From positions 1 to 61,949 of the IMG/VR virus record IMGVR_UViG_3300036987_000305: DNA of 61,949 bases; one strand, given 5' to 3'. Both the position numbers and the translations under genes were made by a program. This document shows positions 18,192 to 44,558 of this stretch, piece after piece. Source of the DNA: a virus (Duplodnaviria > Caudoviricetes). The notes below the pieces were generated by a model, which saw only the letters and a list, made by a program, of their open reading frames with translations, searched no databases and was not told the DNA's origin. Position 1 is the stretch's first letter. Every line of letters starts with the position of its first letter.

Positions 18192-21100
18192 TTATCTTCG
18201 TTTTTCCAGATCTTCCACCCTGGCGGCCAGCTCCTGCACGGCCTTGATCAGCATAGGAATGAAAACGGAGGTCTTGACGGATTTCGTGACCGTACCGGTG
18301 GGCTGAACGATCATAGGCCTTTGATCTTCGGTTTCCGTGTACTCCTCCATCCTGGGGATTCGATGCATAACTGGCGCATAGACCGCTTCCACAGCAGACT
18401 CGATTTCGTTGCCTTCTTCGTCCAGGACGGCCTCTTTCGCCGGGGATACCATCTGCATCAACATCTCGCCGGATTCGCTGTAGAGCGGCACTTCATCGAA
18501 GATCGGAACCGTTTCATCCACCATTTCGATGATGGTTTTCCGGACGTGCCTTCCATCGATCTCAAGGATCTCTGTTTTCGGACTCTCGACTGTTTTGGTC
18601 TCGGTCTTCTGGCGTTTCTGGGTCTTGGGCACCCAATCAAGATCCAACACCCGCTCCATATCGGGCGTACTGGTAACCATGCCGGGGAATACGGTTTCAA
18701 GTTCCTGAGCGACGACACCGAGCTGCTTAAGGTCGGGCTTGCTCTTGAGGTTGAAATGGCGCACTTTGACCTTCAGCAGGTCGGAGAGTTTGGCGGTGGC
18801 GTCCTTGATGCCGCCCTTGAGCTTCTCGTCAGAGATGGTGCCGTATACGCCCGCAGAGTTGAGGATATCGCCATCTGTATCGACAGTGATAACGTTGGCC
18901 TCAGCAGAGTCACGTCCGACGAAGATCAAGGTGGAACCATCGGTTGTGGTGCCTTTAACTGTGAGCTGGCCTACTGCGGGAGTGCCGTCAAGGTCCGTCG
19001 TCCCGATGCCGACGTTGCCGTCGTTTAAAATAGTCAACCTTTCCGTCCCCCCAGCAGTTGTAGTATCCGCAGCTGTCCAAAAACCAATATGTGTTACAGC
19101 ATTTGAGTAGCCATTTCCACCTCCTATATAAAAATTAGTATATGCAGCATCATTATCTATCCAAAGAACCCCTATTGGTTTTGAAGCAGTAGCATAAGGT
19201 ATAGCATTTACAACAGCTATTTTACGAGTATTATCAGTTCTGGTTAATGCCAATATATCAGCCCCGAGTGTTAGAGCATTAGGACCAGCTGCAGGATTAT
19301 AATATCCACTTGCAACATCCAACTTCGCCCCCGGATTCGTCGTCCCGATGCCGACGTTGCCGTTGCTATTTATATACATTGCCCCTGTAGTTAGACCAGT
19401 TGTTTTAAAAATATATGCCGATGGATAAGCATCTCCACCAGAAAAATCAACTGTGTTTCCACCTGAATCGTAAATTCCCAAAGCACCACTATCATAGAGA
19501 AGTGTTCCTGACGTTCTAATATTTCCACTGACATCCAACTTCGCCCCCGGCCCCGTCGTCCCGATGCCGACGTTGCCATTCCCCAGCACCGTAATCAGAT
19601 CGGCCTCGTGATTACTCAACCTCAGCACCGTCTCCGCAGCAGCCAGATCCGTCCATCCGGTCCCGTCAACCTTGCCACCTCGCAGATGTACGGCCGCATG
19701 CGTATCGGTCGGATCAGCCGCACCAATCACACCAGTCAGCCGCAATGCACCATCCTGGGTCGCGTCCGTCAGGCCAACGACATCCAATCCCCCAACGGTC
19801 CCGGAGATGGCCGACAGCTTCCCAAACGTATCCGTCGAAGCAAGGGTCGTCATTCCGTGGGCGATGTCTGAATCAACAAGCGCGAGTTCCTTGGGGAAGG
19901 GTCGGGTGAAACTGTATCCGGTAGTGGGATAGGAGGCATCAAGCTGATTTGTGGTAGCATCGATCCATTTATTAGGTTGGATCCCTTCCGGTTCGAGCGC
20001 GAGGGTTGCGCCGATTTCGGTGATTGTAATAGCTCGTAAATAAAACAGATCATCAACTGCGCTATTTGCACCGACAAAGGTTCTTACCCCCGCTTTTGTT
20101 CCAACGATTGCTATAGACGTTGCTTGAATCGCGTTTGTAAATTCAACAGAAACAGTTGTCCACACATCTTCAGTAGTCCCCGCGATAAGGGCTGTTCCCG
20201 ATGCCGTTGACTGTCCCGGAGTATTAAACAGAATTCCATCTATGTTGGTATTGGCTGACGGAATATAATAACTAAACAACACCCTATATCGCTTTCCGTA
20301 GGCAAACACACCTGTTTTATTAAGGTAATGTGTGTCGTTCGCGCTACTCGCGTAAAAACTTAAATTGTTGTCCTGTCCGCCGATTGTATCGACATTCCCG
20401 GTTGCTGTACCCTGTGCACCTGTCCAACTATCCACCCCCGCACTAAAATCACTTGTATAAACCGCCGTCTGGCTCCCCCACTTATCACTCTCCGCTATCC
20501 CATTCCGGTACAGGTCCAGCACTTCGGCTGCGGTGAGGGCACGGTTGAAGGTGATGGCGTGGTGGGTGGTGCCTGCGTAACGAGTAGTACTGTAACCCAA
20601 TACTGCCAAAGTTCCAGTATTTGACAGATCAGCGGGGATCCCTGCTGTAATTGCGACCGTCTCAAGTAATACGCCATCGATATGAAACGAAACGGAACCA
20701 GCCGCAGAAGCTGTTTCTCGCGTAACAACAGCGGTTATTTCATGGGCAGTGTTATTAGTTAGTGATATTGCTGACGTTGTTTCTTTAGAAACCGATGTTC
20801 CACCAGTCTTTGCATGAAGGTAAATTAATTTAGCATCACTCGACAGGTATAATTGATAACGATTGTCATCGTCCTGCCGTTTTGCTAATAAAATTTGATT
20901 AGCACTCGGCGTCCAATCCGGCAGACTCCCCTTCCACACCAGGGTAAAGTTCCCCGTCCCAAAATCGATATTATCATTATCCGCTACCGTGATGCCGCTC
21001 GATCCAGATGCCGCTGCCGTCATGGCAACGCCCTGATTCGGTTCCCTTGCGAGGACGGCAGCCTCAGATTTGGCAAAGGCTGTGGTGGCTGCCTGAGTCG

Positions 21101-21842
21101 TGGCGGTATTATCCGCGATGGCGGTGGTAAGGGTGGCGGAAGCGACGGTGGGGTTAGCTGTGTATGCCGGGTCAACTCCAACGCCGCCGGAAGCAAGAAC
21201 TTGGCCCGTTGCTACATCTGCAAGGTAAGAGAGATCTCCATCCGCATCAGACTTCACGAGCGACCCAAGTGCAGCTCCAGTAGTGATTTTTGCTGTAGCT
21301 ACAGTAATAGATGTCAGCGATGGTGTTGCCGAATAAGCCGGATCAGCCCCCACTCCACCCGAGACAAGCACCTGACCAGTGGCCACATCAGCGAGAGGCG
21401 TCACCGCTCCAGTTCCACTCCCCAGCATGATCGCGCCGTCGGTAACCGTAGCCAGACCGGTACCGCCTTGAGTAACAAGCACCGGCAGCTCCGTAATCCC
21501 CAAGTCAACCGGCCCCCAGGCAGACCCGTCCCAAATGAACGACTGGGTCTCTCCGGGGGTGATCGTGAATCCGTTGACAACGATAGAGTGTGTCGATGTG
21601 TCGTTGTTAACGACGGTGAATACCTTCCCCGGGGTAGTGTCGGTCGGGTTCTGGATTGTCTGGGCATTTCCGGCGCCGGTTAGGGTTACGATGACGCCAG
21701 CGTAGAGGTTTACGTTAGAGGTAGTGACGGCCGCAAAAGTCGGCGTCCCTGCGGGGTCCGTGGATGTGGTCATCGAGTTAAAACCATCGTCTCCAGAATC
21801 GGGAATAAAGAGCGCGGGTGGTATACTGTCTTTAACGTACAT
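18192..21842 (-). CDS. Tail fibre with LamG-like/carbohydrate-binding domains, GNVGIGT repeats and a C-terminal S74 intramolecular chaperone
   Basis: QGGTG and GQVL-S-G repeats; LamG FNRALTAAEV; 3x GNVGIGTT; SDEKLK...LGVVAQELETVFP...LIKAVQEL. Confidence 0.88.
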   Translation of the reverse strand: MYVKDSIPPALFIPDSGDDGFNSMTTSTDPAGTPTFAAVTTSNVNLYAGVIVTLTGAGNAQTIQNPTDTTPGKVFTVVNNDTSTHSIVVNGFTITPGETQSFIWDGSAWGPVDLGITELPVLVTQGGTGLATVTDGAIMLGSGTGAVTPLADVATGQVLVSGGVGADPAYSATPSLTSITVATAKITTGAALGSLVKSDADGDLSYLADVATGQVLASGGVGVDPAYTANPTVASATLTTAIADNTATTQAATTAFAKSEAAVLAREPNQGVAMTAAASGSSGITVADNDNIDFGTGNFTLVWKGSLPDWTPSANQILLAKRQDDDNRYQLYLSSDAKLIYLHAKTGGTSVSKETTSAISLTNNTAHEITAVVTRETASAAGSVSFHIDGVLLETVAITAGIPADLSNTGTLAVLGYSTTRYAGTTHHAITFNRALTAAEVLDLYRNGIAESDKWGSQTAVYTSDFSAGVDSWTGAQGTATGNVDTIGGQDNNLSFYASSANDTHYLNKTGVFAYGKRYRVLFSYYIPSANTNIDGILFNTPGQSTASGTALIAGTTEDVWTTVSVEFTNAIQATSIAIVGTKAGVRTFVGANSAVDDLFYLRAITITEIGATLALEPEGIQPNKWIDATTNQLDASYPTTGYSFTRPFPKELALVDSDIAHGMTTLASTDTFGKLSAISGTVGGLDVVGLTDATQDGALRLTGVIGAADPTDTHAAVHLRGGKVDGTGWTDLAAAETVLRLSNHEADLITVLGNGNVGIGTTGPGAKLDVSGNIRTSGTLLYDSGALGIYDSGGNTVDFSGGDAYPSAYIFKTTGLTTGAMYINSNGNVGIGTTNPGAKLDVASGYYNPAAGPNALTLGADILALTRTDNTRKIAVVNAIPYATASKPIGVLWIDNDAAYTNFYIGGGNGYSNAVTHIGFWTAADTTTAGGTERLTILNDGNVGIGTTDLDGTPAVGQLTVKGTTTDGSTLIFVGRDSAEANVITVDTDGDILNSAGVYGTISDEKLKGGIKDATAKLSDLLKVKVRHFNLKSKPDLKQLGVVAQELETVFPGMVTSTPDMERVLDLDWVPKTQKRQKTETKTVESPKTEILEIDGRHVRKTIIEMVDETVPIFDEVPLYSESGEMLMQMVSPAKEAVLDEEGNEIESAVEAVYAPVMHRIPRMEEYTETEDQRPMIVQPTGTVTKSVKTSVFIPMLIKAVQELAARVEDLEKRR

Positions 21843-22309: not shown

Positions 22310-25300
22310 TTATTTTTTGTCTTCCATCTCCTTTTTTTTCCGGATGACCGGCGGCGTTATCCACCGGTTTTTCTGTAGCTTTTCGTAAACGTTCTCGTAG
22401 TCCTTCGCCGGTAGCTCTTTTTCCCATAGGATTAAAAGCGCGGCTCGCTCCGCCGATGTTGCTGCCGACCGGAAGGAGTTAACATATACGTTACCCTCTT
22501 TTCGTGTTCCCAGGTCTCTATACCGGCCGTAGAATTCCTTCAACGATTGGTTGGTCTGTCCAGTTTCCACTGCTGTGAGCCAGAGCTCTCTCGCAGTTTC
22601 GAAGTCGGCACCTTCCCCCTTGTTGGTCGCATCGATCATTTTGTCTTTCAGATCGAGGGATTTATTCGCAGCGATCTTCCGCTCCTCATTGACGACGTCC
22701 TGGGCTCTCTCCCTGGTGCCGGTATCGGACACACGAAGCAATCGACCTATCGTGTTAAACGGGACGATGCCCAGGACGTCTTTAATTTCGTTGTTCATTT
22801 CCTCGACTTTTGTGCCCTGAAACTTATATACCAGCCCCCCGAACAGGCCGTTCCAAGTCTCTTTCGACAGGGATTCAAACGCTCGCATTCCGCCTGCCTT
22901 AGCGACCTCTTCGCTCATCGTGGGCGACCCGTAATACGTGTTCACGGGGATAACTCCGTTCGCGTAGTACCGGGTCCAATCGATGACCGAAGAGATCAGA
23001 GGGTGCAGGTTGTACGGCTGCGCCCCGGTCACTAAACCCAAGGCGCCCATAGAGCCCGTGAAGTCCCGGGTGATGGCCGCGTCGACAATGGCGCCGGTCA
23101 TCTGACCGGAATAACTTTGAGGGATCGTAATAAATACCCCCTTATCGCCCAGCATCCCAATGAGCACTTGGGCTTTTTTACCAAGGATCCATTCCAGTGC
23201 TGTCCCGATCCACGCGGTAGGGATAGGGATCGTCGTGTACATTCGCCGCAGGTATCTTCCCGCTTTCTTCGCTGTCTTCGCAATCTCCCCCTCCTCCCCG
23301 CCCCACCATCCAGCGACCATCGTTGCGAAGAGGATATGGGGCATCACATTCGCGATAAAGGTTTTCATCGCATACGTGGCGGGCTTGTTCTTGATCGCTA
23401 CAGAGGTGGAGACGAGGTCCTGCGTCGCGATATTCGCGAACGGGAAAATGATCTCCGTCCACTTTGTAATCAAACCGCCCGAGAGGCTGTTCGGCGTTCC
23501 GGCGCGTTCGATAATGGCCACTGTCTTCTCGTGTTTCCCGAGGCGAATTCCGGTTGCCTGCTCTTTCAGGGTGACCGCTTCTTCCGCGGCGTACTTTGCC
23601 CAGCGCTCCCCCGCCTTCCCGAGCTTCCCGACAAAGCGAAGGTACATCGGAATCAGGAGGAAGCGGTCGAGCTTCGTCCTCTCGAGGTAGTCGATCCCGC
23701 GTTTCATGATTCCGCCCACTGTGTTGGGGTATTGAGTAGGATCCGCCATTCTCCGCAGCATCTCTTCCTCCTGCTGGTGGTATGACGTATCACTATTCCA
23801 GAATCGTTCCGCGGTCAGTTTCTTTTCGCGAAGGAGGCGCAGCTCACGCTCAGTCGTAATGCCCCAGCCGGCTTTAATGGCGTCCGTAAAGGTCCGTTTG
23901 TACCCCTTCATCAGGTATCCGGATACCTCGGGCATCTTTTGCCAGGTTCCGAAGGAGTCCCGGATAGGATTCATCAGGGTCCAGCCGAGATTCCATTGGA
24001 TGAAGAGCCTGGCGATAAAGGCCTTCCCCGCCATGCCCAGCTTCAACAAACCGTGGGCGCGATCCGGATTGAATGCCCACATATCCGCGAGCTCTTTGTC
24101 GATGTAATACCCTTCGGTCTTCCCATTTGGGGTAACAACGATCAGCCCATAGTCCGCATCGGGTGAAGGCATGAAAACTCCGCCGGCGCCAGGTCGTGCC
24201 TTGATCACGTCCGGAAGCGTTCCGTTCTGTTTCATCTCCCGAAATTCTTCCATGGTCTCGGCGACGTTGCCCTCCGTGATCAGCCCCTCAAGGACGCCCA
24301 TCTTCGTTTTATGGTGCTCGGCGGCGCGAATGAGCGCCATGCCTTTCGCCAATGTGGCGCCGAATACGTTGGCCACATCCCCGAGCATTCCGTACTGCTT
24401 GTAGATGTGCGCAGTGGGTCCGGATCCGTATCCAGTCCCGTAGACTTTGTCGATCTCGTACTCCAGATTCACGAACGTTGCGTAATCGGGGTTGTTGAGC
24501 ATGTAATCAACTAACTTTTTAGGGAGGAAGTCCGCGTCAGCGACCACGTTCAGCACATGCTTCTCGTACAGCGCCCGGAATTTAAAGGCGTAGTCGGCGA
24601 GCCTGTTGAACTTGGCGTCGCCCATATCCTGGCGCATGCGCTCCAGGTGCGCCTTGGCCGCCGGGCCACTCTCGCCCCCGGGGTTGTTAATGTCGGCGCG
24701 TTCTGTAGCAGCACGGTTTTGCCCCATGTATTCATGCAGATCAACTATGGAGATCCCCTCCTTGTCGGCGGCTATAACAATCTCATCGTCAACCTGCTTA
24801 GAGAAAGCGCTGACGATCGAATTGATATACGGCAGTTCGGTGAACCAGTATTCGATCCTGTGCTCATCGCGTACTTTTCGCCCCTCCTTGGAGAGCCGGC
24901 GGGCGATGTCAAAAGCCTTCTGTTCTTTTCGGACAAACGTCCGCATGACTTCGTGCCACAATTTCGATCGGCCGAATTTCCGCTGCTCGGTAAGAAGATT
25001 CGTTTTTAGGTTTTGGATCTCGACATCCCGTTGGGCCATGCCCCGGTAGCGCTCCCTGCGCTTGGTCATGACCATGGCGGGGTCCTTTACCAGCTCTTGG
25101 AGACCATCGTAGACTTCCTTGAAAGTCGGTTTACGGTCCAGGTAGTTGAAGAACGCCTTGGTGAATGTCGGGGCAGTGGTCTCCATCAAGCGCGGATTAT
25201 TCAGCAGTACAGAGATTGCGTCCGCATAGAGCTCCTCGGAGGACCAGCGATACCGTGTATACTTTCTATCCAGGTCGGGGTTAAAGGGCTTCCAGCGCAT

Positions 25301-28300
25301 GGAGAGCTTCTTCAGCTCCGCGATGATCGTCTCCTTCTCGAAGAGTTGCCGCTTTTGGATCTCCTCTTTCAGAAGCTCGTTAAAGCGCTTCTTGATTTCG
25401 GCTTCCGTAGCGTACTTCCCGGGCATCCGGACTTCAACGGTTTCGGTAATGGTCTTCGTTCCGATCTGCCGGCCGACGCCGCCGAGGGCCTTCACGCGCT
25501 CGTCGACGATCCCCTTCATGGCCTGGAGGACAACGGCTTTCTTCGTTGCGGAATCAGCGAGCTGCATGAAGCGGAGAATAATTGCGGGGTCGTTGGTTCG
25601 GCCGCGCATGATGTCAAGAATCATCTCCGGGGTAATGGACGTCTGCTCATACTCCGGAACCTCTTTGATGATCTCCTGAACGATAACCCTGTCTGGAATT
25701 TCCTCGGCCTTCAGCTGGCGTTCGGCTTCTGCCCGCATACGCGCGCGATCGGCATCCGTGAGAATGACGTTCGGGGAATCCGGGTATTCCGCAAGAAGAG
25801 AGTTGTCGTACTTAGACGCTGAGGCCAAGCGACCAAGTATATTCCCCCGCTTCAGATCCTTGTTAGGCAGCCAATCGGCAAGGTGGCCAATCTCGTGGGC
25901 GAGCGTCTTCGCGACGTCTGCCTGGGACATGGAGGCAAGGACGCCAATCCGGCCTTTCGCGGGAAAGAATCTACCAACGGCGCCCTTGAGGAACTTCATG
26001 ACCTTCGGGGCTTTGCCGTCCGAAAGTTCTTTGACGAGCTGGACCAGTTCCGGAAGTTCGATAGCCGAACGAACCTGTTTCAGGTAGGCTTCCCGCTGGG
26101 TTTCTGTTGACGTAGTCTCCGCATACCCACCCATATCGGCGAAGTCCAGATCTGCGGAATCCGTGCCGGTATCGACGGTTGTGCTGGTAGGATCATTGCG
26201 CAGTAACGGCAAAGCCGCAGAGCCGGCGGCTTCCCGTGTCACCTTTACAGGTTCGAAGATTGCGACTGCCTGGTAGGGCGTAGAGACAAATCCGATGTAC
26301 CCGGCCGCCTGGATTTTCTTTTCGAACAGGAGATTCCGGGCTTTATCGCCGAGGAGTTTCGCTTTCTTCATCTCCGCGTCGGTCGGGTAGAGCTTTAACG
26401 GATCCTCCCAAGAATCATACAGATCGTTTCCGTTCACCTGCGCAGAGTACCGGTATGGCCCAACGTACGGTTCCGCGGTATATGTCCCGAATCCCCAGTA
26501 GGTTTTATCCAGCCAAAGTTTTGGGTGCATCTGCTTGGAGGCACGTTCAGCACCGGCTCCCTTCGTGCCATGCTTGGACGGATCCGTCGCCTTCATTTTT
26601 TCCTGGTTCGACCAGTGCGTAAGGGTGACGATCTTCCCGCGGAATTCTTTGGGGGCGCCCTGCCCCCGGGTCTCGGACACGGCGTCTTTTTTCGCGTCCT
26701 TTAACGCTTTCTCCGCGGCTTGGTATTTTCTCATCTCCTCTTTTACCTTCTTCAGGTACTCGGTAAATCTTCGAAGAATGTTCTGATCATCCTTGCTCTG
26801 GTCCCCGAAGACAGTTCGCGTGGAGCCTCCGGTTCTTGCTTGCTCAATTCCGAGAATATCAGATTGGCTAAATCTCCCTTGCCCGTCTCGGTGAGAGCGG
26901 GAGTTGAATTGCTTGACGGTGTCATAGAGTTTTCCTTTCTTCGCCGTTACTGCCCGGCGAGCGGATACGAGGTAGTCCTCGACGTTAGCAATATCCAGGT
27001 GGGATATGCTGTTCAAAGCTAGGGTAACAGGATCCTCCGCTGCAAAAAGATCAGCTGTGGAAGAGGTATCCACTTTCGGATCCAATGCGTCGTACAGCAC
27101 CCGCACGAAGGACCACATGGTCTCCTGAACCTCCGCGACTTTCAGACCCATACTATTCGCGACTTCTCGCGCTCTCGCGGCAAAGGCTATGTACATGGGG
27201 TTATCAAGTAGCTGCTTCACCGAAGTGTTGTAGTCCCGCAGTCCGGTGATGGGGTCGGCGGGATTCAGAAGCTCGAATGCCATATGCCGGGCCACCCACA
27301 TATCCGCGGTGGCCAGATCAAGAACGCCTCTGATATTCAGGGAGTAGTTCGGTTGCTTAAAGTTCCCCAACTTCCCCAAGTACTGCCCTGAGAATACGTC
27401 GATGATCTTCTTCCGAATAACGTCAGCCCGAATCCCCGCTTTGAATTTATCGTTGAAAATCTTTTCCAGTTTCGATACGTCACTCGGGCGTTTGGCTTTA
27501 TCCCATGCCATCCAGGCGCGAAGAGCAACTTCCAGATTCTCCCCGGGTTTCATCCCGACGGACGTCGCCGCTAAAAGCTGCGCGAATGTTGCGTGCTCGT
27601 AGGGCATCGTCTCGATCGGGAAGAGATGGTTGATGAAGCGCCGGCAGTTTTCATACCAACCAAGGCCTTCTTTCCCGGCTTTGGAAATGGCGGCCATCTC
27701 CGTAGGGTCGAAGAAGTTATAGAGCTCCAGAACTTTTCGAAGCCGCTGGAGCTTTGTCTCTTCGTTCGTTCCGAACACCGCTTTGATGTTGTGGTCAGTG
27801 AACCATGCCGGCCCGGCGAGTTTGGCGATCTTCTTCCAGGCGGATCGTTCTGCTGGAGAGAGGGCGGTTTCGGCCTGCTTCAAGGCAGGATGCGCAGTCT
27901 TTCCAGACTCCAGGGCGGCCATGATCCTTCGTTCCTCATCCACTGAGGAAACTGAGGACGATGGGACCTCGTGGAATTTGTACTCCTCGTCTTCTTGTTG
28001 TCCCGGGCGAAGATCCTTAATCGCTCGAGTTTCCTGGTAGACTTTTCCCTCAAATTCTCGGTGGATCGTCTCATCAGTATGGAAGGATTTCTTGCCCACG
28101 TTCTCATCAACATCGCCGGCTTCTGCTACCGCGATCTTACTCGCCAACTCCGACCCCTGGTAAATGGCCAAATTATAGACGTTCGCATGGGAGACGATGT
28201 CCGAGTTATCCCTCAGGAACTGGAGGGTGCGCTCATAGGTCTCCGATGTTTCTTCCTGGATCCCCACGATGATGTTCGGAATGAACTTGATTCCGGTATC

Positions 28301-30745
28301 GCGGAGTTTCTGGGCGGCTTTATCGATCAGCGCTTCGGTATGCGGCTTATGAAGCGGCCGCAGAATATCGTCATTGTAGCTTTCGACGCCAAGCTCCACG
28401 AACTTTATCCCGGATTCTGCCAGCCATTCAGTATCAAACTTGTTGAAGGTCCCGGCAGTTGTCTGGATGATGAACCCATCGAAGTCGGGATTCTCAGCCT
28501 TTATCACCTTGTTAACTTCGGAAAGCATCTTATAATTCGGCGCCTGGCCAAACGTCTTATCGTTCAGATATACCAATTTCGCTTTCAACTTACCGAAAGA
28601 CCGGGCCTGTTGGAAGATGGCCTCCTTGGGCGGGGTCGTCAGGTCTTTCGGCACCGTGCAAAATGCGCACTTGAATTTACACCCTTGGGACATGGTCAAT
28701 CGTGGGATGACTTCGGATCCTTCAAAGTGCCGGTAGTCAGTGCCTTCGGTGTATTGCAGCCCGTACTTATCCGCGTAAGACTGGAGCGAATCATGCCACG
28801 TCGCATTTGGCAGATCGGCCATCTTGCTTTCGACATACCCGCCAATATCGATATTCCCAGCGTAATCAGCGGCCAGATCCTTGATCAGATTCTGATTCAC
28901 GTCGATCGCTGAGAAGACCAGGTTTGTATACCCAGACTCCGCAATGAAACGCTTCGCGGCTTCCATGTCGCGTACGACATAGACATCCGCATTCGGATTG
29001 ATGTGCGAGATAAACCCCATCCATTGCGGGATCTCCCAGAAGTCTGTTAGGCGTTTGTACCCAGGCACCGTCGCATACGTCTCATCATAATACTGCACGG
29101 ATTGGTCCGTCGGATCCGTCTTCCCGAGGAGAGTCGTTCCGAATTGGACCATGAGGGTTCTACCATCATTTGATGTAGATTGCACATCAAGATCCGGATC
29201 CGCCGATCGGCGTACCCAAGGATTGGACACGCTGTCGGTTTTCTTTACCGCGTCGGGATAAGTGAAATGCGGCCGGGAGACTGCGTTTCCGGGGATCTCG
29301 GCTGCGAGTTCCGGGGAGTATTGAACGTATTGTCCGCTTCGTCCTTGGACCTGTCCCGATACGCTTCCGCGCCCTGGAACTTCACCTTGATCCCCAAGGT
29401 CTTCAGCTCTTTGAGAAATTCTGCTCTGTCCATCCGGTACCTCCTCTAGCACGGTTTCGGTTTTGGCTTCCCCTTCTTCACTTATACCACCCCCTTCTTG
29501 CACAGTTGCCCCAGGTTGAACGATCGCGGCTGTAGACGGACCTTCAGCCGTCCCTGTTTCGGCGGTCGTTCCTGGGGCGTTTAATTCCGAAAAAGTAAAT
29601 TCTGATTTGGGCTTCGCGCTCGGGAGCATGGAGACCGGGGTGTCAGGTGCAGGCGCCGCTGGACGGACGCGATTATACACTTCTGTTGAGGTAGCCAAAG
29701 CCCCCGCCTGCAACGACCCGACTACCAGCCCCTGCGCCGCAGCTTCTGGGACTCCTTCCTTCCAGGGTTTCCCCATCGCGAGATTCGTAAAGATCTGTTC
29801 TTGCAGTGACTGGGGCATCTCCTCAAGAGCCCCTTCTTTGAATACCCCCTTAGCGATTGTCTTTCCGGCGTTCAGCAAGGTGCTACGCTCCCCCGCCCCC
29901 AGCAGGGCTTTAACCGCAGAAACTTCTACGTCCTTCAGCCCGGGGATCAGAGATGTTCCGTAAGATATGGCGGCCGTTCCGGCTCCCGCCGCTACCGCAG
30001 GTAAGATGCTTTGCCCCCAGGTACGTCCTTCTTGCCGCGCTCCTTCCTGGATCTGACCAGCTGTGATGGCCCCTTCGGAAATGGCACCAGCTTTCAAGAG
30101 CGTCTTCACCATCACGGGGGAGGAGAGGAACGCCTTGACCGCGGCAGTATCGCTAAGCGCAATCCCGGCGCGCTTCAATGCGGTGACAGCAACGGTTCGA
30201 ACCCCGCCCATTATCCCCAGCATCATCGGGGCGGATTCCAAAACCCCGCCGGCCGCGACAGACGGATCCTTGACAAGTGCCACAACGGTGTCCACGAAGC
30301 CCTTGGCTTCCGAGACACGGCGGTTTGCTTCCTTGCGCTCGGGGCTGTATTCGTCCTCGAGGATCTTCTTCGTGGTTTTTGGATCGTATCCGACCGCCTC
30401 CAGCGCTTTGCCGGTGAGATTCCCGGTGAACATATCCGCAATACCGACCATGCTCTCCCCGAACCCGACAACGCCTTTGGCCACATCCACGGCGACGTTC
30501 TTGACAGTCCCCATCGCACCATTTGGATCGGCGCCAATCGGCGCTTCAGCCGGTCTTTCCGGGACGACACTCATCGTAGTACGCGACGTGGCCATACTCT
30601 CCGGAGTGCGAACAGAGATCGTCGCACCCGTCGCGGACAGCGGACCAAGATATTCTATCCCCGACTCCTTTTCATCCAGGGGGCCGAGGTATTCTACGCC
30701 GGATTTCTCTGTAGGCAATGGCCCAAGGTACTCGACTTCAGGCAT
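22310..30745 (-). CDS. Giant polyvalent internal virion (ejection) protein: B12-type radical SAM, HhH-glycosylase-like, ART-like and zincin domains plus a helical C-terminal region
   Basis: SQGCKFKCAFC (CxxxCxxC), LNDKTF, ELGVES; GWY...LLAATS...ATADMWVAR...QETMW; LTHWS...GYIG...AIFEP; AHEIGH...EELYADA. It is the last of three ejection-type genes. Confidence 0.82.
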   Translation of the reverse strand: MPEVEYLGPLPTEKSGVEYLGPLDEKESGIEYLGPLSATGATISVRTPESMATSRTTMSVVPERPAEAPIGADPNGAMGTVKNVAVDVAKGVVGFGESMVGIADMFTGNLTGKALEAVGYDPKTTKKILEDEYSPERKEANRRVSEAKGFVDTVVALVKDPSVAAGGVLESAPMMLGIMGGVRTVAVTALKRAGIALSDTAAVKAFLSSPVMVKTLLKAGAISEGAITAGQIQEGARQEGRTWGQSILPAVAAGAGTAAISYGTSLIPGLKDVEVSAVKALLGAGERSTLLNAGKTIAKGVFKEGALEEMPQSLQEQIFTNLAMGKPWKEGVPEAAAQGLVVGSLQAGALATSTEVYNRVRPAAPAPDTPVSMLPSAKPKSEFTFSELNAPGTTAETGTAEGPSTAAIVQPGATVQEGGGISEEGEAKTETVLEEVPDGQSRISQRAEDLGDQGEVPGRGSVSGQVQGRSGQYVQYSPELAAEIPGNAVSRPHFTYPDAVKKTDSVSNPWVRRSADPDLDVQSTSNDGRTLMVQFGTTLLGKTDPTDQSVQYYDETYATVPGYKRLTDFWEIPQWMGFISHINPNADVYVVRDMEAAKRFIAESGYTNLVFSAIDVNQNLIKDLAADYAGNIDIGGYVESKMADLPNATWHDSLQSYADKYGLQYTEGTDYRHFEGSEVIPRLTMSQGCKFKCAFCTVPKDLTTPPKEAIFQQARSFGKLKAKLVYLNDKTFGQAPNYKMLSEVNKVIKAENPDFDGFIIQTTAGTFNKFDTEWLAESGIKFVELGVESYNDDILRPLHKPHTEALIDKAAQKLRDTGIKFIPNIIVGIQEETSETYERTLQFLRDNSDIVSHANVYNLAIYQGSELASKIAVAEAGDVDENVGKKSFHTDETIHREFEGKVYQETRAIKDLRPGQQEDEEYKFHEVPSSSVSSVDEERRIMAALESGKTAHPALKQAETALSPAERSAWKKIAKLAGPAWFTDHNIKAVFGTNEETKLQRLRKVLELYNFFDPTEMAAISKAGKEGLGWYENCRRFINHLFPIETMPYEHATFAQLLAATSVGMKPGENLEVALRAWMAWDKAKRPSDVSKLEKIFNDKFKAGIRADVIRKKIIDVFSGQYLGKLGNFKQPNYSLNIRGVLDLATADMWVARHMAFELLNPADPITGLRDYNTSVKQLLDNPMYIAFAARAREVANSMGLKVAEVQETMWSFVRVLYDALDPKVDTSSTADLFAAEDPVTLALNSISHLDIANVEDYLVSARRAVTAKKGKLYDTVKQFNSRSHRDGQGRFSQSDILGIEQARTGGSTRTVFGDQSKDDQNILRRFTEYLKKVKEEMRKYQAAEKALKDAKKDAVSETRGQGAPKEFRGKIVTLTHWSNQEKMKATDPSKHGTKGAGAERASKQMHPKLWLDKTYWGFGTYTAEPYVGPYRYSAQVNGNDLYDSWEDPLKLYPTDAEMKKAKLLGDKARNLLFEKKIQAAGYIGFVSTPYQAVAIFEPVKVTREAAGSAALPLLRNDPTSTTVDTGTDSADLDFADMGGYAETTSTETQREAYLKQVRSAIELPELVQLVKELSDGKAPKVMKFLKGAVGRFFPAKGRIGVLASMSQADVAKTLAHEIGHLADWLPNKDLKRGNILGRLASASKYDNSLLAEYPDSPNVILTDADRARMRAEAERQLKAEEIPDRVIVQEIIKEVPEYEQTSITPEMILDIMRGRTNDPAIILRFMQLADSATKKAVVLQAMKGIVDERVKALGGVGRQIGTKTITETVEVRMPGKYATEAEIKKRFNELLKEEIQKRQLFEKETIIAELKKLSMRWKPFNPDLDRKYTRYRWSSEELYADAISVLLNNPRLMETTAPTFTKAFFNYLDRKPTFKEVYDGLQELVKDPAMVMTKRRERYRGMAQRDVEIQNLKTNLLTEQRKFGRSKLWHEVMRTFVRKEQKAFDIARRLSKEGRKVRDEHRIEYWFTELPYINSIVSAFSKQVDDEIVIAADKEGISIVDLHEYMGQNRAATERADINNPGGESGPAAKAHLERMRQDMGDAKFNRLADYAFKFRALYEKHVLNVVADADFLPKKLVDYMLNNPDYATFVNLEYEIDKVYGTGYGSGPTAHIYKQYGMLGDVANVFGATLAKGMALIRAAEHHKTKMGVLEGLITEGNVAETMEEFREMKQNGTLPDVIKARPGAGGVFMPSPDADYGLIVVTPNGKTEGYYIDKELADMWAFNPDRAHGLLKLGMAGKAFIARLFIQWNLGWTLMNPIRDSFGTWQKMPEVSGYLMKGYKRTFTDAIKAGWGITTERELRLLREKKLTAERFWNSDTSYHQQEEEMLRRMADPTQYPNTVGGIMKRGIDYLERTKLDRFLLIPMYLRFVGKLGKAGERWAKYAAEEAVTLKEQATGIRLGKHEKTVAIIERAGTPNSLSGGLITKWTEIIFPFANIATQDLVSTSVAIKNKPATYAMKTFIANVMPHILFATMVAGWWGGEEGEIAKTAKKAGRYLRRMYTTIPIPTAWIGTALEWILGKKAQVLIGMLGDKGVFITIPQSYSGQMTGAIVDAAITRDFTGSMGALGLVTGAQPYNLHPLISSVIDWTRYYANGVIPVNTYYGSPTMSEEVAKAGGMRAFESLSKETWNGLFGGLVYKFQGTKVEEMNNEIKDVLGIVPFNTIGRLLRVSDTGTRERAQDVVNEERKIAANKSLDLKDKMIDATNKGEGADFETARELWLTAVETGQTNQSLKEFYGRYRDLGTRKEGNVYVNSFRSAATSAERAALLILWEKELPAKDYENVYEKLQKNRWITPPVIRKKKEMEDKK
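26752..26925 (-). CDS. Nested +1-frame ORF (57 aa) inside the polyvalent gene
   Basis: AGAAAGGA-7nt-ATG; MTPSSNSTPALTETGKGDLANLIFSELSKQEPEAPRELSSGTRARMIRTFFEDLPST*. Translated by hand; below the ORF-track size cutoff. Confidence 0.5.
   Translation of the reverse strand: MTPSSNSTPALTETGKGDLANLIFSELSKQEPEAPRELSSGTRARMIRTFFEDLPST
29245..29433 (-). CDS. Nested +1-frame ORF (62 aa) inside the polyvalent gene
   Basis: GAGGAGG-7nt-ATG; MDRAEFLKELKTLGIKVKFQGAEAY...; the host frame is a low-complexity G/Q/R/S linker here. Confidence 0.55.
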   Translation of the reverse strand: MDRAEFLKELKTLGIKVKFQGAEAYRDRSKDEADNTFNTPRNSQPRSPETQSPGRISLIPTR

Positions 30746-37380: not shown

Positions 37381-38044
37381 CGGGGGTCTCCATCGTCACG
37401 GTATCGGGCAGTCTATGCGCGATCTGGCCTTCCGGATATTTCATCACGTACTCATTCCGTTTCCGCTGCACTTCAACGATGTACTGATTATACGCCATGG
37501 CCGCATCAGCCCAACGCCGAAGTTTCAACGCCGAAAACGCCAGCGTAAAAAGGTAGACGCTTTCGTGGAATTCGACAGGGAGGTTGGATGCAGGGAGATC
37601 TGTCCCCGCGGTACTGAGAACGACCGTAGGGTAGCACGCTGCGTAAATTTCCAGATCATAAGTTCCGACATCTGGAACAGGGTCGAGGATTAGGTAATCC
37701 CCCCATTGGAACCAGTACTGGGGGGAAGATCCGTCAACACTCGCATGCCCAAAAGTCTGTGGGAGAGCGCAGAGCAAGCCCCATCCCCCCTGAGTCGCGC
37801 CCGATTTGTACTCCACGTAGTTGACCCGAATCACCCCATTCCCTACCAAGGATACTACTTTCTGGGAGACCGAGATGTTGGTCTTCGCGATCTTGGACTC
37901 GTAGCAAAGCCCTTTCGCGCATACGTCCCGATAACCCATGTTAAGGATGATGGTAATCTCAGCGTCCGAAAGAATAGTTGTAGACGACTCATTAAGATCA
38001 CTTCGGACGTTCGAAAGAATTTTAGCGACAGTTAGTGTCCCCAC
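37370..38044 (-). CDS. Head-tail adaptor paralog 4 (no insertion)
   Basis: VRSDLNE...SDAEI...PQYWFQWG...DPVPD...LPVEFHE core shared with the three upstream genes. Confidence 0.72.
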   Translation of the reverse strand: MGTLTVAKILSNVRSDLNESSTTILSDAEITIILNMGYRDVCAKGLCYESKIAKTNISVSQKVVSLVGNGVIRVNYVEYKSGATQGGWGLLCALPQTFGHASVDGSSPQYWFQWGDYLILDPVPDVGTYDLEIYAACYPTVVLSTAGTDLPASNLPVEFHESVYLFTLAFSALKLRRWADAAMAYNQYIVEVQRKRNEYVMKYPEGQIAHRLPDTVTMETPDGR

Positions 38045-39663
38045 GGGCGACCTCCTTGATAGACGACGTTATTAGGTAGTTGTTTTATAGCACACTTTTC
38101 AGCTCGCCGGGTAACATATTCTTGCCGACGCGCTCTTAAATTTCGAATATAAATATTGTAATACCCGGCCGCCTGCTTCCAACGCTGGAGCGCGAGGCAA
38201 ACCGCATAGAGCGAGAAGTCCAATACGCAAGTCCGAAATTCCTCGGGAAGCGAATCCGGGTAGTCTGTCGTTGATGTCAACTCGGTTGCAGGGTAGTCTG
38301 ATACGTAGAGCTTAAGAGGATACGCATCATCCGGGACCGGCTCAATTACAATATTATTATTCCATTGGAACCAATATTGGGGGGTGTTATCTTTTATTGA
38401 AATGTGGCCGAGGTTCTCGGGACGGATTTTCAGGAGCGCCCCGTTGCTAGATGTGCTGGTTGTTGGTGTAAGCGTAGAGGAGATCATGTATACGTCATTG
38501 TCGGCTCCAGTGCTTCCGCAAGCCACAACCTGATTATCCCCAAACGCAGACGAATAAAGGGTGGTGTTGCGAGGGTTTGTAACTTCCGCCCAAGTTAAGC
38601 CAGCATCGCTTGATTTCACTACATATGCATCAGTACCGTCCGCGTTGCCAAAGGCAAATACATCCACCCCGTTATAGGTAACTGAATTTAACTGATAGCT
38701 TGTTTTGGGGGTATCTACCCTTGTCCATGTAATCCCGTCTGTTGATCGGCAAGTTCTTCCGCTTCCCGACACAGCAACAAAGGCTGTCCCGCACCAGGTT
38801 ATGCCCCTGATCTTGCGCATTGCCCCGCCATTGATTGTTGCCGGCGTCCATGTAACACCATTATCGGTTGAATATTCGATATATCCAGTAAGTACATCAC
38901 TAGAATCCCCCCCGCCAGCTACAAAAGTGCCGCTTCCGTATGCAACAGCGGTGAGTTCGATTTGTAATGGATTGGAATGCGTTCTATCTGTCCAGGTTCC
39001 CCCGGATGATGTGGCAATGTATATGCCAGTTAAGGTTGAATAGTGCGCTCCGACTGCACAATAGATACCATCGCCGTATGCGACTGCAAAAAAGCATCTG
39101 TTGTAACTATTAATTGTGGACTCGCTCCATGTAGCCCCATCGGTGGACCAGATAACATACCCATGTAGAGTAGGCTGGTTTCCTGGATCACCAACAGCGC
39201 AAAATCCGGCGCTACCATATGTAATTGATCTGATCGACCTTCCACCGGAAGTGTTTAATCCTGTTATCGGCGTCCATATAACCAAATCGGTAGAGTAATA
39301 CATCGCCAATAACCCAGACACGAGGCATTTTATTACCCATACACCATCGCCATATCCCAGCGCTTGAGACCCTTGCGGGATGGCCGGACCGGCAAGTTCG
39401 GTAAACGATGAGCTCGATCCCCCCGTTACTATTTCTTCGCTACGCTCTACGAAATTAACCCGATGTCCGTTAAACGAAACAAGCCGACTCCCGGAAACCG
39501 TAGTTGCGGTATCCTCATGCTCTATACAAAACGCCCTACTTGCCACATCCTTGTATCCATCGTTAATGGCTTGCAGGAGCATCTCCGCGGTAACAGCCGA
39601 ACCTACCGGCGCTTTGAGCCTCGAGCGAATCTCGGATTCTATGTCTCCGACGCTGTTCCGCAT
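38032..39663 (-). CDS. Head-tail adaptor paralog 3 with an inserted BNR/beta-propeller domain
   Basis: Adaptor core split by ~330 aa of S-T-D-G-x-T-W / VAYG-G repeats. Confidence 0.75.
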   Translation of the reverse strand: MRNSVGDIESEIRSRLKAPVGSAVTAEMLLQAINDGYKDVASRAFCIEHEDTATTVSGSRLVSFNGHRVNFVERSEEIVTGGSSSSFTELAGPAIPQGSQALGYGDGVWVIKCLVSGLLAMYYSTDLVIWTPITGLNTSGGRSIRSITYGSAGFCAVGDPGNQPTLHGYVIWSTDGATWSESTINSYNRCFFAVAYGDGIYCAVGAHYSTLTGIYIATSSGGTWTDRTHSNPLQIELTAVAYGSGTFVAGGGDSSDVLTGYIEYSTDNGVTWTPATINGGAMRKIRGITWCGTAFVAVSGSGRTCRSTDGITWTRVDTPKTSYQLNSVTYNGVDVFAFGNADGTDAYVVKSSDAGLTWAEVTNPRNTTLYSSAFGDNQVVACGSTGADNDVYMISSTLTPTTSTSSNGALLKIRPENLGHISIKDNTPQYWFQWNNNIVIEPVPDDAYPLKLYVSDYPATELTSTTDYPDSLPEEFRTCVLDFSLYAVCLALQRWKQAAGYYNIYIRNLRARRQEYVTRRAEKCAIKQLPNNVVYQGGRPWGH

Positions 39664-39670
39664 ACTCCTC

Positions 39671-40651
39671 CTACTGGTAAATCATGCTGTTACGGCCGTC
39701 CGGGATTACCTCAACGATGCTCTGCCGCAGATAGACAAGCTCATTTGCGTAAATCGACTCAAGCATCTGCGCGGGACCTGTTCTCCGATCCTTGTGGAGG
39801 GCCTTCGCCGCCGCAAAAAGAACCATCAGATGCTGGTACGCCGAGCCCAGTTCTGTCTGATTGGTGATGGCCGCATAATCTGCTTCAGCGTACGCATAGA
39901 ATCCGCTGATCACGATCGTATTGGCCCCCGTCAGAACAGGTTTCCACGGGGTGGTCGCGGCGAGACTCTGCATATGGACCCCGGTAGTCGTTACGGCTAC
40001 GCCCGTCGCGCCACAAGAGGGTGTAACCGATCCACTCGTACCCACGCTGTCCACGGTGAAGACGAAAGTCACATTGGTATTCGCGGCGGCGATTGCGGTG
40101 TAGGCTGTCAGCGTCGTCGGGCCGGCTCCCGCGTGGGATGCCGTCGTGGAACACGTCCAGGCGGATCCTCCATCGACCCACTGATTTGCGCTGGAGCCCT
40201 CAACGAACGCTATACCGTTGTAGACCGTAGTCATTTTCGGAAGATCCGCTACGTACAGCCTAAGCTGATAGATGGCGTCCGGCACCGGCTCGATTCCTAT
40301 ATTGGACCCGAACTCATACCAATACTGCGGCGCCGCCCCATTGGCCGCCGGGTAATGCCCCAACCGAAGCGGGTCAATTTTGGTCAGCATCTGCGCCCTC
40401 CCTGAGGAGGGGATATACTCGACATGAAGGACCTTGTACGCATTCGTCGCAACGTTTCGTGTGGATGCCACGGTTACAGCGTCCAGGACACGACGCACGC
40501 ACAGCGCTTTCTGGGCGATGTCTTTGGCCGCGATACTCAACCATCGCCAGATTTCAGCCTGCGTAAAAAAAGACGGGGTTACCTCGTTGATGTACGTTCG
40601 TACCCGGGCCTCTAGTTCTTCAGCGTCCAGATTTGGAAAAGTTCCCGCCAT
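39671..40651 (-). CDS. Head-tail adaptor paralog 2 with an inserted beta-sandwich-like domain
   Basis: VRTYINE...PQYWYEFG...EPVPDAIYQLRLYVAD, then a ~120-aa T/G-rich insert before AYQHLMVLFAAAKA. Confidence 0.75.
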   Translation of the reverse strand: MAGTFPNLDAEELEARVRTYINEVTPSFFTQAEIWRWLSIAAKDIAQKALCVRRVLDAVTVASTRNVATNAYKVLHVEYIPSSGRAQMLTKIDPLRLGHYPAANGAAPQYWYEFGSNIGIEPVPDAIYQLRLYVADLPKMTTVYNGIAFVEGSSANQWVDGGSAWTCSTTASHAGAGPTTLTAYTAIAAANTNVTFVFTVDSVGTSGSVTPSCGATGVAVTTTGVHMQSLAATTPWKPVLTGANTIVISGFYAYAEADYAAITNQTELGSAYQHLMVLFAAAKALHKDRRTGPAQMLESIYANELVYLRQSIVEVIPDGRNSMIYQ

Positions 40652-40663
40652 AATAACCTCCTG

Positions 40664-41560
40664 TTAAATAAAGCCGCCAAGCGGGCCGGCAGAGTCCCAT
40701 CCAGTGTAGAGATTCCCGTGGATCTTCTGGACCGCAATAGCGTTTCTGAATATCCTAAAATACAGGTCAGATTGCACCGGATCAAACGTGTGCTCCCCCG
40801 CCTTGAGCCGCGCCATATAACAGATGCCGTCCACGATAGCGCTGTGGTATGCTTGATCAATCTCCGGCGTTTGAGCCGACATCGAGGAAGTAGTCAGCGC
40901 GGTCAGAGGATACCGAATGACAGACAGGTAAATCGGGTAGGAATCATCCGGCGGAGGATAGACCGTCAAGTACCCCGTGCGGTAGTCGAGCACAAAACGC
41001 GCCGGCTCATTCTGGTCAGCGCTTCTCCAAGAAACGATTCCGTCCATCGATGCGGTGTTTGTCTTCGTGAGGAATTTTGGAGAGTCGGAGTTGTCCGAAA
41101 AAGTCGGGTACGTTGCACCCTGGTCCGCGGTATTCGTCCCGTCCCCGACGACTTCGCCGAGGGTGAACGTGCCCGTTCGGTGTTCAACCGTGTATGTAGT
41201 CGAAGTGTCCTTGGATACCACGGTGCACGCCTTCGAGCTCGTCACACCGGTGACGGTGGCAGCAGCGGCGAAGGTGGTTGGCGTGGGCGCCACATCCAGC
41301 GTCATCAGCTCTGTCTCGACGAGTTTCGCTGAGAGGACGTAGAGGATCAGGGGGGAAAGCGCGTAGTCGAGGACTCCCGCGGAGGTAAAGATCCGGCAGA
41401 TAGAGTCCGTTGTCGTATCGACCAGGGAGCGCGTCTCCCGAGCGATAATGTTCTCAATCTGGTTCGCGTAATATACCAGCTCCGAATCCACCCAAAGATA
41501 GGGTTTTTCGTAGTTGTTCAGCCGGTATCGAGCCTGGTCGATGATCTCCTGAAGGGTCAT
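40664..41560 (-). CDS. Head-tail adaptor paralog 1 with an inserted TVTG-TS module
   Basis: MTLQEII...RLNN...WVDSEL...VYPPPD...PEIDQAYHSAIV core; ~75-aa insert. Confidence 0.75.
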   Translation of the reverse strand: MTLQEIIDQARYRLNNYEKPYLWVDSELVYYANQIENIIARETRSLVDTTTDSICRIFTSAGVLDYALSPLILYVLSAKLVETELMTLDVAPTPTTFAAAATVTGVTSSKACTVVSKDTSTTYTVEHRTGTFTLGEVVGDGTNTADQGATYPTFSDNSDSPKFLTKTNTASMDGIVSWRSADQNEPARFVLDYRTGYLTVYPPPDDSYPIYLSVIRYPLTALTTSSMSAQTPEIDQAYHSAIVDGICYMARLKAGEHTFDPVQSDLYFRIFRNAIAVQKIHGNLYTGWDSAGPLGGFI

Positions 41561-41561
41561 T

Positions 41562-41831: not shown

Positions 41832-41842
41832 CCTTTCCCTCC

Positions 41843-43171: not shown

Positions 43172-43187
43172 ACGCCTCCTGCCTCCG

Positions 43188-43502: not shown

Positions 43503-43515
43503 TATTATCCTCCTT

Positions 43516-43562
43516 AAAAAACCGGGTGGGTACTCCCCCGAAGGGTTTCTCCACCCGGGTTA
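43516..43562 (-). terminator. Probable terminator after the capsid-associated genes
   Basis: ccgggtgg...ccacccgg stem; aaaaa on + gives a U tract on -. Confidence 0.6.
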
Positions 43563-43567
43563 TGGGG

Positions 43568-44500: not shown

Positions 44501-44558
44501 GATAAATCCTCCTCAAGTAAAATCGGGCGGGTGATATGCTTCCCCCCGCCCTACTGGT

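Follow-up and report, generated by a model that had tools for sequence, protein, structure and literature searches.

The virus record IMGVR_UViG_3300036987_000305 of IMG/VR (Duplodnaviria; Caudoviricetes) is rated as a complete virus genome of 61,949 bases, and its whole length was analysed as one window. A giant open reading frame (ORF) at positions 22310-30745 (-) encodes a protein of 2,811 amino acids (aa), here called P0001, whose residue n starts at base 30745-3(n-1). P0001 is a polyvalent protein, probably of the ejection type (internal virion), and we consider it likely that it occupies the ejection slot of this virus and joins a zincin-headed scaffold to three cargo modules: a radical S-adenosylmethionine (SAM) module, a module with the helix-hairpin-helix (HhH-GPD) fold, named domain A, and a module with the ADP-ribosyltransferase (ART) fold, named domain B. 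A first-pass annotation, made from the letters of the DNA, had quoted three sets of motifs from this region (25150-27720) as glycosylase-like, ART-like and split zincin patterns following the radical SAM. All three sets were recovered at their coordinates, in a single frame inside the ORF, and they are not chance resemblances, as their key residues are conserved across relatives. The ORFs of the + strand that overlap the region were taken as shadows of the long conserved gene of the - strand.

The giant ORF comes after the genes of the terminase, portal, adaptor-like and tail proteins, plus those of smaller proteins, and the tail-fibre gene (18192-21842) lies directly downstream of it. The structural block includes a large terminase of 680 residues (50841-52883 (-)) and a portal of the SU10 type (47572-49689). 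In the gene order of T7-like phages, the largest internal core (ejection) protein stands just before the tail fibre, and P0001 sits in this slot of the largest internal protein of short-tailed phages. Its identity as an ejection-type protein is probable, with gene position suggesting its packaging in the virion and its delivery.

When large proteins were searched with aa 1000-1900 of P0001, 58 relatives were obtained, 55 of which (P0002-P0056) share the region of aa ~1535-2800, always at their C-terminal end, as seen by blastp. The N-terminal parts of these 55 relatives bear other domains, namely RadC, ART-PolyVal, several LPDs and Zeta toxin. At the opposite end of P0001, a conserved head of the scaffold (aa ~70-356, 29678-30538 (-)) matches phrog_30335 (E 3.6e-17), being the only piece of the protein recognized by PHROGs, and it also matches the N-terminal parts of P0006, P0008 and P0057 (blastp). 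In P0006, the same N-terminal head and the same C-terminal module enclose a different cargo (blastp). Since the relatives keep the ends and vary the cargo, P0001 can be described as a fixed scaffold with a swappable middle: by comparison of the sequences, its scaffold appears to consist of a head at the N-terminus (aa ~70-400) plus a module at the C-terminus (aa ~1535-2811), and it carries about 1,000 residues of swappable enzyme cargo.

The conserved C-terminal scaffold comprises ~1,270 aa, with the zincin at its head, followed by a long body (aa ~1901-2811, 22313-25045 (-)) shared with P0002-P0056 (blastp), for which no family or solved structure was matched by sequence searches. A pentatricopeptide repeat (PPR) identity of part of this body (24200-24295 (-), ~aa 2151-2182) was rejected, as the matches to Protein Data Bank (PDB) entries, with E values of 5e-12, are an artefact in which every repeat of designer PPR proteins stacks on one 32-residue PPR-like motif. 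The search of a phage collection with aa 1000-1900 by tblastn resulted in a single match, a hypothetical protein of Pelagibacter phage Baldr, covering the zincin part only. At the very start of P0001 (aa 4-36, 30638-30736 (-)), three tandem copies of [VI]-E-Y-L-G-P-L were observed with a 13-residue spacing; two or more copies are found in no other protein among the 325 large ones gathered, and the repeat might be a docking or packaging signal.

Regarding the cargo, Pfam recognizes Radical_SAM and, below its threshold, DUF7178, with no other domain found in P0001. The first cargo module (aa ~540-940, 27926-29128 (-)) is matched by Radical_SAM at aa 685-844 (E 1.6e-15) and carries the CxxxCxxC motif at aa 689-696 (28658-28681 (-)), with no second cysteine cluster seen upstream of it in the translation. 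NCBIfam models gave sub-threshold matches only, to B12-binding and MiaB-type radical SAM families, and the module may be called B12-type-like by its sequence. Close homologues, 44-61% identical, are present in at least 192 large, mostly multi-domain proteins of 1,546-4,920 residues.

The two other cargo modules emerged from a whole-library HMMER search with aa 960-1560, which returned 738 proteins at E <= 0.001; among the 150 matches listed, two separate and mobile parts of the query are seen, aa ~995-1260 (domain A) and aa ~1360-1515 (domain B). Domain A (26966-27763 (-)) contains, all on the (-) strand, the motifs GWYENC (aa 1029, 27644-27661), FAQLLAATS (aa 1054), KQPNYSLNI (aa 1130), ATADMWVAR (aa 1145) and EVQETMW (aa 1205 to 1211, 27113-27133). 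The Pfam model DUF7178 (PF23802) aligns to aa 1019-1214 with 14.4 bits (E 0.037), not reaching its gathering cut-off of 27 bits. In the whole-library phmmer search, P0159, P0164 and P0177 match the region of domain A at E ~1e-12, and all of them pass the DUF7178 cut-off, with 52.8, 50.1 and 49.1 bits, respectively. More generally, phmmer E values of 1e-12 to 1e-24 tie domain A to proteins above that cut-off, and P0058 and P0059 match it within their DUF7178 regions. As judged by these matches, domain A is a homologue of accepted DUF7178 members and a divergent copy of this family. Two relatives in which A or B stands alone, P0159 (aa 20-80) and P0198 (aa 240-298), also bear DUF3293, which overlaps there with a weaker match to the S-adenosylmethionine lyase family; DUF3293 is present as well downstream of DUF7178 in several radical SAM carriers.

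The AlphaFold2 model of domain A, built on a 27-sequence alignment, is all-helical, with a mean predicted local distance difference test (pLDDT) of 79.6. In Foldseek, its top five PDB matches are the archaeal Ogg and AGOG enzymes (best MjOgg, 3knt_C, E 0.085, prob 0.99), and MUTYH is found too. VIA-align, which is independent of Foldseek, places Tm1821 Ogg first (3n0u, Z 10.0, root-mean-square deviation 3.8, 180 aligned residues), followed by D. radiodurans EndoIII-3 (8.9), MutYX (8.3), a DUF2419 queuine-salvage protein (8.2) and NTHL1, MUTYH and Mag1 (8.0 each), with MagIII, MutY, a thymine glycosylase, OGG1 and endonuclease III as further HhH-GPD proteins in the top rows. All top 15 rows, and 24 of the 50 overall, are HhH-GPD proteins, and the rest of the list consists of helical bundles that overlap over short stretches (57-91 residues). 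Helical proteins easily reach such Z values, according to the caution given with the tool; what gives the match its weight is a uniform list and an alignment over most of the domain. Thus, the HhH-GPD fold of domain A is supported by its model, and the HhH-glycosylase-like call of the first-pass annotation is borne out, with HhH-GPD proteins ranking first in both structural searches and an invariant Lys/Asp pair at the spacing of endonuclease III.

All 75 members of this family share seven invariant residues (K1130, N1137, T1146, D1148, W1150, Q1207 and W1211), and the QET-W motif together with the Lys/Asp pair is kept in 67-75 of the 75 relatives. Lys1130 (27356-27358 (-)), the candidate Schiff-base lysine, lies at the start of a helix beginning at model residue 141, and Asp1148 (27302-27304 (-)), the candidate catalytic aspartate, stands before the next helix (160-166), which starts right after it. 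The distance between them is 18 residues, with Asn1137 at Lys +7, and the consensus of E. coli endonuclease III shows the same spacing for K120, N127 and D138, of which K120 and D138 are the catalytic residues of that enzyme. An invariant lysine at this spacing is a hallmark of glycosylase/lyase enzymes acting on DNA. DUF7178 can be read as a divergent family of the HhH-GPD fold whose active site is plausibly of the glycosylase/lyase type; the model supports the fold, and the active site is a prediction from the conserved residues. The 27-sequence profile of domain A gave nothing significant against PDB sequences, and no model of NCBIfam or PADLOC matched A, B or the zincin.

Domain B (aa 1360-1515, core 1372-1501; 26201-26668 (-)) has the motifs LTHWS (aa 1375, 26609-26623 (-)), TYWG (aa 1415 (-)), AGYIG (aa 1481 (-)) and AIFEP (aa 1495 to 1499, 26249-26263 (-)), and it is found both as a part of giant proteins and alone, in proteins of 129-132 aa. 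It belongs to no Pfam family, as Pfam, NCBIfam and PADLOC gave no match to it, and searches of its profile and of the motif-bearing region against the sequences of solved structures gave nothing useful. Its AlphaFold model, obtained with a 40-row alignment, has a pLDDT of 95.7 and a predicted template modelling score (pTM) of 0.89. The conserved stretches that flank B in its closest relatives were considered as linkers, and this was rejected, since they are modelled at high confidence within the domain. VIA-align lists MbcT (Z 6.3, 127 aligned), VPA0770 (6.2), NatT (6.1), ParT (5.9), a RES toxin (5.8) and 6kyf (5.4), which we take to be the ADP-ribosyltransferase AcrIF11, with relatives of diphtheria toxin, exotoxin A, PARPs, Tpt1, Arr and DarT in later rows; judged by their entry titles, no fewer than 43 of these 50 rows represent proteins with the ART fold. 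The ART fold of domain B is therefore supported, at the level of the model. Residues 1419-1604 of chain B of the cyanophage A4 pre-ejectosome (9k3a) are also a structural match (Z 5.7, 116 aligned), the identity of the A4 protein in this chain being tentatively assigned by its length; in the consulted parts of the A4 paper (PMC12002296), an ADP-ribosyltransferase-like domain is not mentioned. As a lead only, ART-PolyVal is annotated on 20% of the members of the ESM Atlas neighbour cluster of B.

A plain membership of B in ART-PolyVal was rejected, as the Pfam model, jackhmmer and the layout of P0057 are all against it. The ART-PolyVal model (PF18760) gave no match to P0001 at E <= 1, and a three-round jackhmmer search from ART-PolyVal resulted in 51 domain matches among the gathered proteins, none of which is a B domain. 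P0057 carries B at 706-836 plus a separate, true ART-PolyVal at 1126-1287, and B and ART-PolyVal occur in the same giant proteins at other positions. Meanwhile, five motif parallels are shared by the two: HWS with HGT, the strand-2 aromatic residue, YD..DP with YL..NP, GYxG with G.DG and A.F.P with aF.p. B looks like an unnamed sister family of ART-PolyVal. The HxS histidine, His1377 (26615-26617 (-)), is kept in 86 of 86 B domains, pairs in the alignment with the histidine of HGT in ART-PolyVal and stands at the end of strand 1 (model strand 13-20), and Y1416 (80/86) lies in the strand 56-59, so that the His and Tyr positions of ART proteins are occupied.

A linker motif was also observed in relatives of the cargo domains. 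P0259, P0256, P0216, P0251 and P0093 have 8-14 copies of [AG]-Q-[FYM]-x-P, where shuffling predicts less than one, placed ~100-250 residues apart like domain borders, and they look like processing or junction sites. P0001 has a copy, QYSP, in the linker that leads to the radical SAM (aa 475-478, 29312-29323 (-)), and another one inside B that is probably due to chance.

The zincin module (aa 1535-1900, 25046-26143 (-)) forms the N-terminal part of the C-terminal scaffold and is conserved in the 55 large relatives and in 27 viral contigs. The AHEIGH motif (aa 1616-1621, 25883-25900 (-)), with HEIGH itself at aa 1617-1621 (25883-25897), extends to HEIGHLAD (25874-25897 (-)), comprising the HEXXH residues and Asp1624; in the 56-row alignment, the two histidines and the glutamate are kept in 56/56 and Asp1624 in 55/56. 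Downstream, EELYADA (from aa 1837, 25217-25237 (-)) includes the ExxxD element E1838-L-Y-A-D1842 (25220-25234 (-)), a candidate third zinc ligand in which E1838, Y1840 and A1841 are present in 56/56 and D1842 in 49/56. An E-x3-D element resembles the third-ligand motif of the thermolysin type. His1621 and Glu1838 are separated by 216-217 residues, and part of this spacer is a variable insert between the active-site helices (aa ~1683-1780, 25406-25699 (-)), because only 20-60% of the 56 rows have residues there; by blastp, its length is ~25 residues in some relatives versus ~104 in P0001.

Regarding known peptidases, no curated peptidase family of Pfam or NCBIfam matched the zincin copy of P0001, the best PDB profile match is the HEXXH helix of a snake-venom metalloproteinase (E 0.2), and the ESM Atlas search gave nothing useful. 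Among 21 relatives from viral contigs, weak matches were obtained to SprT-like (9/21, best E 0.0019), DUF6782 (7/21) and Reprolysin_3 (6/21), and Peptidase_M78 (cut-off 22) gives 23.6 bits for the homologous HEXXH region in P0025. The sequence evidence fits a gluzincin-type metallopeptidase with a partly variable insert at aa 1535-1900, its fold and metal-site geometry being predictions. The zincin with a distant glutamate proposed by the first-pass annotation agrees with the conservation and with the weak but concordant family matches in relatives; what it described as split is better seen as one gluzincin-type domain with a partly variable insert. The module is always located at the junction of cargo and scaffold, at the N-terminal edge of the conserved C-terminal body, a position that would be compatible with a self-processing role.

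Several results weigh against the reading of P0001 as an ejection-slot protein with enzymatic cargo. For A, B and the zincin, no curated family model reaches its cut-off on P0001. In the model of domain A, two stretches (model residues 170-187 and 269-276) are of low confidence, and its hairpin reads LGNFK in P0001 and LSGPK in the A family. Pfam HhH-GPD (PF00730) was absent from P0001 (E <= 1) and from the genome (E <= 0.001), with all control genomes matched. The comparison of the A family with endonuclease III by hhalign was not significant, with probabilities of 0.17 against the single E. coli sequence and 0.11 against 120 close homologues, 86-99% identical and thus a shallow profile; as a consequence, the equivalence of the Lys/Asp pair is based on the spacing, the helix starts and the shared fold. 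For B, the best Foldseek match is weak (E 0.031), in a list with the anti-CRISPR 6kyf, ParT, MbcT, CopC, OspC3 and diphtheria toxin, and the best Z of 6.3 is below the level that the VIA-align notes call safe. The hhalign comparison of 86 B domains with 22 ART-PolyVal domains is also weak (prob 7.9 global, 29.8 local). Likewise, no sequence similarity was detected between P0001 and the N4 virion RNA polymerase (vRNAP) or any solved ejection protein, and its packaging, ejection, self-cleavage and enzyme activity are what we infer.

The catalytic centre of B is a further point of this kind. ART-PolyVal has an Asp in its G.DG motif that is kept in at least 90% of the 22 ART-PolyVal domains and that we equate with the strand-5 Asp in the H-Y-D triad of PMC5512222. 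Through the weak local alignment (prob 29.8), this Asp falls on Ile1484 of P0001 (26294-26296 (-)), a variable position with K 17, E 15, L 11, A 11, S 11 and I 5 in the 86 B domains, and the canonical strand-5 acid is not kept. Transferase activity is doubtful because of this substitution, and B may rather have kept the ART fold with its catalytic centre re-wired or lost. Other residues are near-invariant, namely E1400, E1425 and Y1443 (84/86), D1448 (83), and Y1422 and E1475 (80), and another acid, Glu1425 (26471-26473 (-)), in the loop after strand 2, or E1475, might be the stand-in for the strand-5 acid. In this way, the ART-like call of the first-pass annotation holds for the fold, with HxS, GYxG and FxP being parallels of ART-PolyVal motifs, and fails for the conservation of the catalytic Asp. 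As a whole, the earlier reading is partly supported: the fold calls of A and B were right, the usual catalytic acid of B is missing, the zincin call is grounded in conservation, and the functional story is a proposal.

As to how such a protein could work, P0001 would most likely be packed in the capsid and expelled with the DNA, as its gene position suggests, and its cargo enzymes would be active within minutes of the start of infection. The substrate of domain A would be DNA bases, which it would flip and probably excise, with a lyase chemistry via Lys1130, and domain B would be a module handling NAD+ or ADP-ribose by a chemistry other than canonical transfer. For a cut between cargo and scaffold, the zincin would be the candidate with the best position.

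Instead of enzymes, B and possibly A could be binding modules, with B as a pseudo-ART holding NAD+, ADP-ribose or a host protein and the HhH module only binding DNA, for example, the leading genome end. This is possible, on the less likely side: the ART-PolyVal Asp is replaced by a variable residue in B, and catalytically dead ART folds (PARP13 and the TASOR pseudo-PARP) are among its structural matches. However, the near-invariant polar residues of B (H1377, E1400, Y1416, Y1422, E1425, Y1443, D1448 and E1475) go beyond the needs of the fold, and in A the Lys/Asp pair and QET-W are kept through the family, which speaks for the enzymatic cargo of the preferred reading.

A similar standing, tentative at best, is given to a zincin that does not process its own chain, attacking host proteins or having a purely structural or packaging role as in N4 vRNAP. 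The relevant parts of PMC5512222 describe N4 vRNAP, ArdC and TraC1 as transferred at full length and list effector roles for metallopeptidase (MPTase) domains; N4 vRNAP is packaged uncut, though its HExxH region is needed for encapsidation. Moreover, the zincin is joined to a 900-residue conserved body in all 55 relatives, which suits a structural role. On the other hand, its catalytic motifs are invariant, the module is always at the boundary between variable cargo and scaffold, and relatives of the cargo domains have 8-14 processing-like linker motifs, with P0001 having only one in a linker.

The first-pass annotation had also united the radical SAM, glycosylase-like and ART-like domains in one anti-defence pathway of base modification or de-modification, which we hold to be improbable. 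Searches through A, B or the zincin led to 207 proteins, of which 80 have A, 95 have B and 23 have both, with B upstream in 21 of these 23 and a gap of no more than 60 residues in 13; in P0071, the radical SAM, A and B stand back to back. The co-occurrence with the radical SAM was counted on the 119 listed other carriers of a close homologue, where A is present in 61 (the radical SAM first in 59 of them), B in 24 and both in 14. The zincin scaffold is present in only 1 of these 119 carriers, and the radical SAM, A and B are in none of the 55 scaffold relatives nor in the 27 zincin-bearing viral contigs. The cargo block travels apart from the scaffold, as the scaffold relatives lack all three of its domains, and the cargo parts appear to be found together more often than with the scaffold of P0001, in carriers that are kin and whose counts are not independent.

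These associations lend a common pathway modest support; however, the gap between the radical SAM and A, usually 300-1,400 residues long and filled by unnamed domains, has a median of 668 residues and is at most 120 in only 5 of 59, and 58 of the 119 carriers lack A and 95 lack B. The radical SAM modules of the carriers are 44-61% identical, which makes them kin. In addition, the order of A before B in P0001 is in the minority (2/23), B lacks the canonical catalytic acid, and polyvalent proteins typically join unrelated activities, according to the consulted part of PMC5512222.

The last alternative, that domain A acts on a free nucleotide or nucleoside (signalling or modified) in the manner of the queuosine-monophosphate hydrolase DUF2419, is very unlikely, since the DUF2419 enzymes in fourth and eleventh place in VIA-align (Z 8.2, 214 aligned; Z 7.5, 204 aligned) and the proposal that polyvalent proteins carry enzymes degrading nucleotide signals (PMC7824862, in the part consulted) are set against DNA glycosylases in 13 of the top 15 rows, the best one included, and the invariant lysine at endonuclease III spacing, a hallmark of DNA-acting enzymes.

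Compared to described systems, P0001 is closest to the polyvalent proteins of Iyer, Burroughs, Anand, de Souza and Aravind (2017, J Bacteriol; PMC5512222), whose phage-type members have, in the sections consulted, a zincin-like MPTase hub and ART-type cargo. Similar to these, it joins unrelated enzyme domains in one chain, its gene lies among virion genes and its cargo includes an ART-type domain. According to the same sections, the phage-type MPTase has an Asp three residues after HEXXH, along with inserts that vary and lie between its two active-site helices, both features being matched in P0001 by HEXXH-x2-D and the inter-helix insert. Unlike that class, P0001 is not matched by the Pfam models ART-PolyVal and MPTase-PolyVal, and, unlike one of its MPTase clades, no conserved His was seen upstream of HEXXH in the 56-row alignment of its family. 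The terms 'radical SAM' and 'glycosylase' are absent from the main text of PMC5512222, whose supplementary domain lists may name them otherwise, for example, as LPDs.

Domain A resembles HhH-GPD glycosylases (Tm1821 3n0u, endonuclease III, MutY and AlkA/Mag) in its two-lobed helical fold and Lys/Asn/Asp spacing. It differs from them in having no match at the sequence level, no iron-sulfur cysteine cluster seen, the extra invariant GWY and QET-W of its family, and its embedding in a virion protein. Meanwhile, domain B shares with ART-PolyVal and minimal ARTs (the RES toxins MbcT and NatT, ParT and 6kyf) the ART fold, the strand-1 His and the strand-2 aromatic residue, but departs from ART-PolyVal by lacking the conserved Asp and having its own near-invariant E1400, Y1422, E1425, D1448 and E1475.

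Regarding virion proteins, the C-terminal domain of the N4 vRNAP gp50 consists, in the consulted part of PMC13434306, of a HExxH subdomain of ~250 residues, followed by ~1,100 mostly helical residues of unknown fold. P0001 similarly has a HExxH module, a long conserved body after it and the cargo upstream; the cargo of N4 is an RNA polymerase, however, and the likeness is one of layout, without sequence similarity. P0001 is also comparable to T7 gp16 and podovirus core proteins and to cyanophage A4 gp27 (PMC12002296, in part), as the product of the largest gene before the tail fibre and a carrier of enzymatic cargo, but it has no sequence similarity to T7 gp16 or A4 gp27. As in T7, genes of smaller internal proteins precede the largest gene. 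The cargo of T7 gp16 is a lytic transglycosylase.

As for the literature on the cargo itself, a full-text search found no paper on the fold or function of DUF7178, and we did not come across a published polyvalent protein with a glycosylase-like cargo, a glycosylase passage among the sections consulted being concerned with T4 endonuclease V. We likewise did not find in print a phage in which radical SAM and HhH-GPD occur together, nor an ejection protein with a radical SAM cargo, with the mention in the consulted part of the N4 paper being about HExxH motifs.

Elsewhere in the window, a domain like the SU10 adaptor or phrog_399 is encoded by each of three consecutive genes on the (-) strand (40664-41560, 39671-40651 and 38032-39663, in the last one in its C-terminal part), which suggests, by sequence, duplicated adaptor-type proteins at 38032-41560 (-). 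The terminase (50841-52883 (-)) has an N-terminal extension, whose residues 158-238 match phrog_85, annotated as thymidylate synthase (E 8.5e-10). No match was found when the phage collection was searched by megablast with window positions 40000-53000.

Since the polyvalent class, its ART-type cargo and its zincin hub are already in print (PMC5512222), the new part is the cargo. DUF7178, a family of unknown function present in many polyvalent proteins, gains a fold and a candidate Lys/Asp active site; an ART-fold family is delineated beside ART-PolyVal, as its unnamed sister in which the customary catalytic Asp has been lost; and a well-conserved radical SAM module is found in at least 192 large, mostly multi-domain proteins. 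A far-reaching and quite improbable extension is that DUF7178 is a virion-delivered enzyme for base excision or flipping that, with a phage-specific radical SAM and the re-wired ART, would rewrite or strip bases of the host or of the incoming phage DNA early in infection. If true, the cargo of P0001 would be an injected 'base-editing' counter-defence unit, a system not found described in the literature. Should domain A prove to be an active glycosylase/lyase that enters together with the genome, phages would have in it a weapon or shield of a new type, acting early, and it would perhaps be a useful enzyme.

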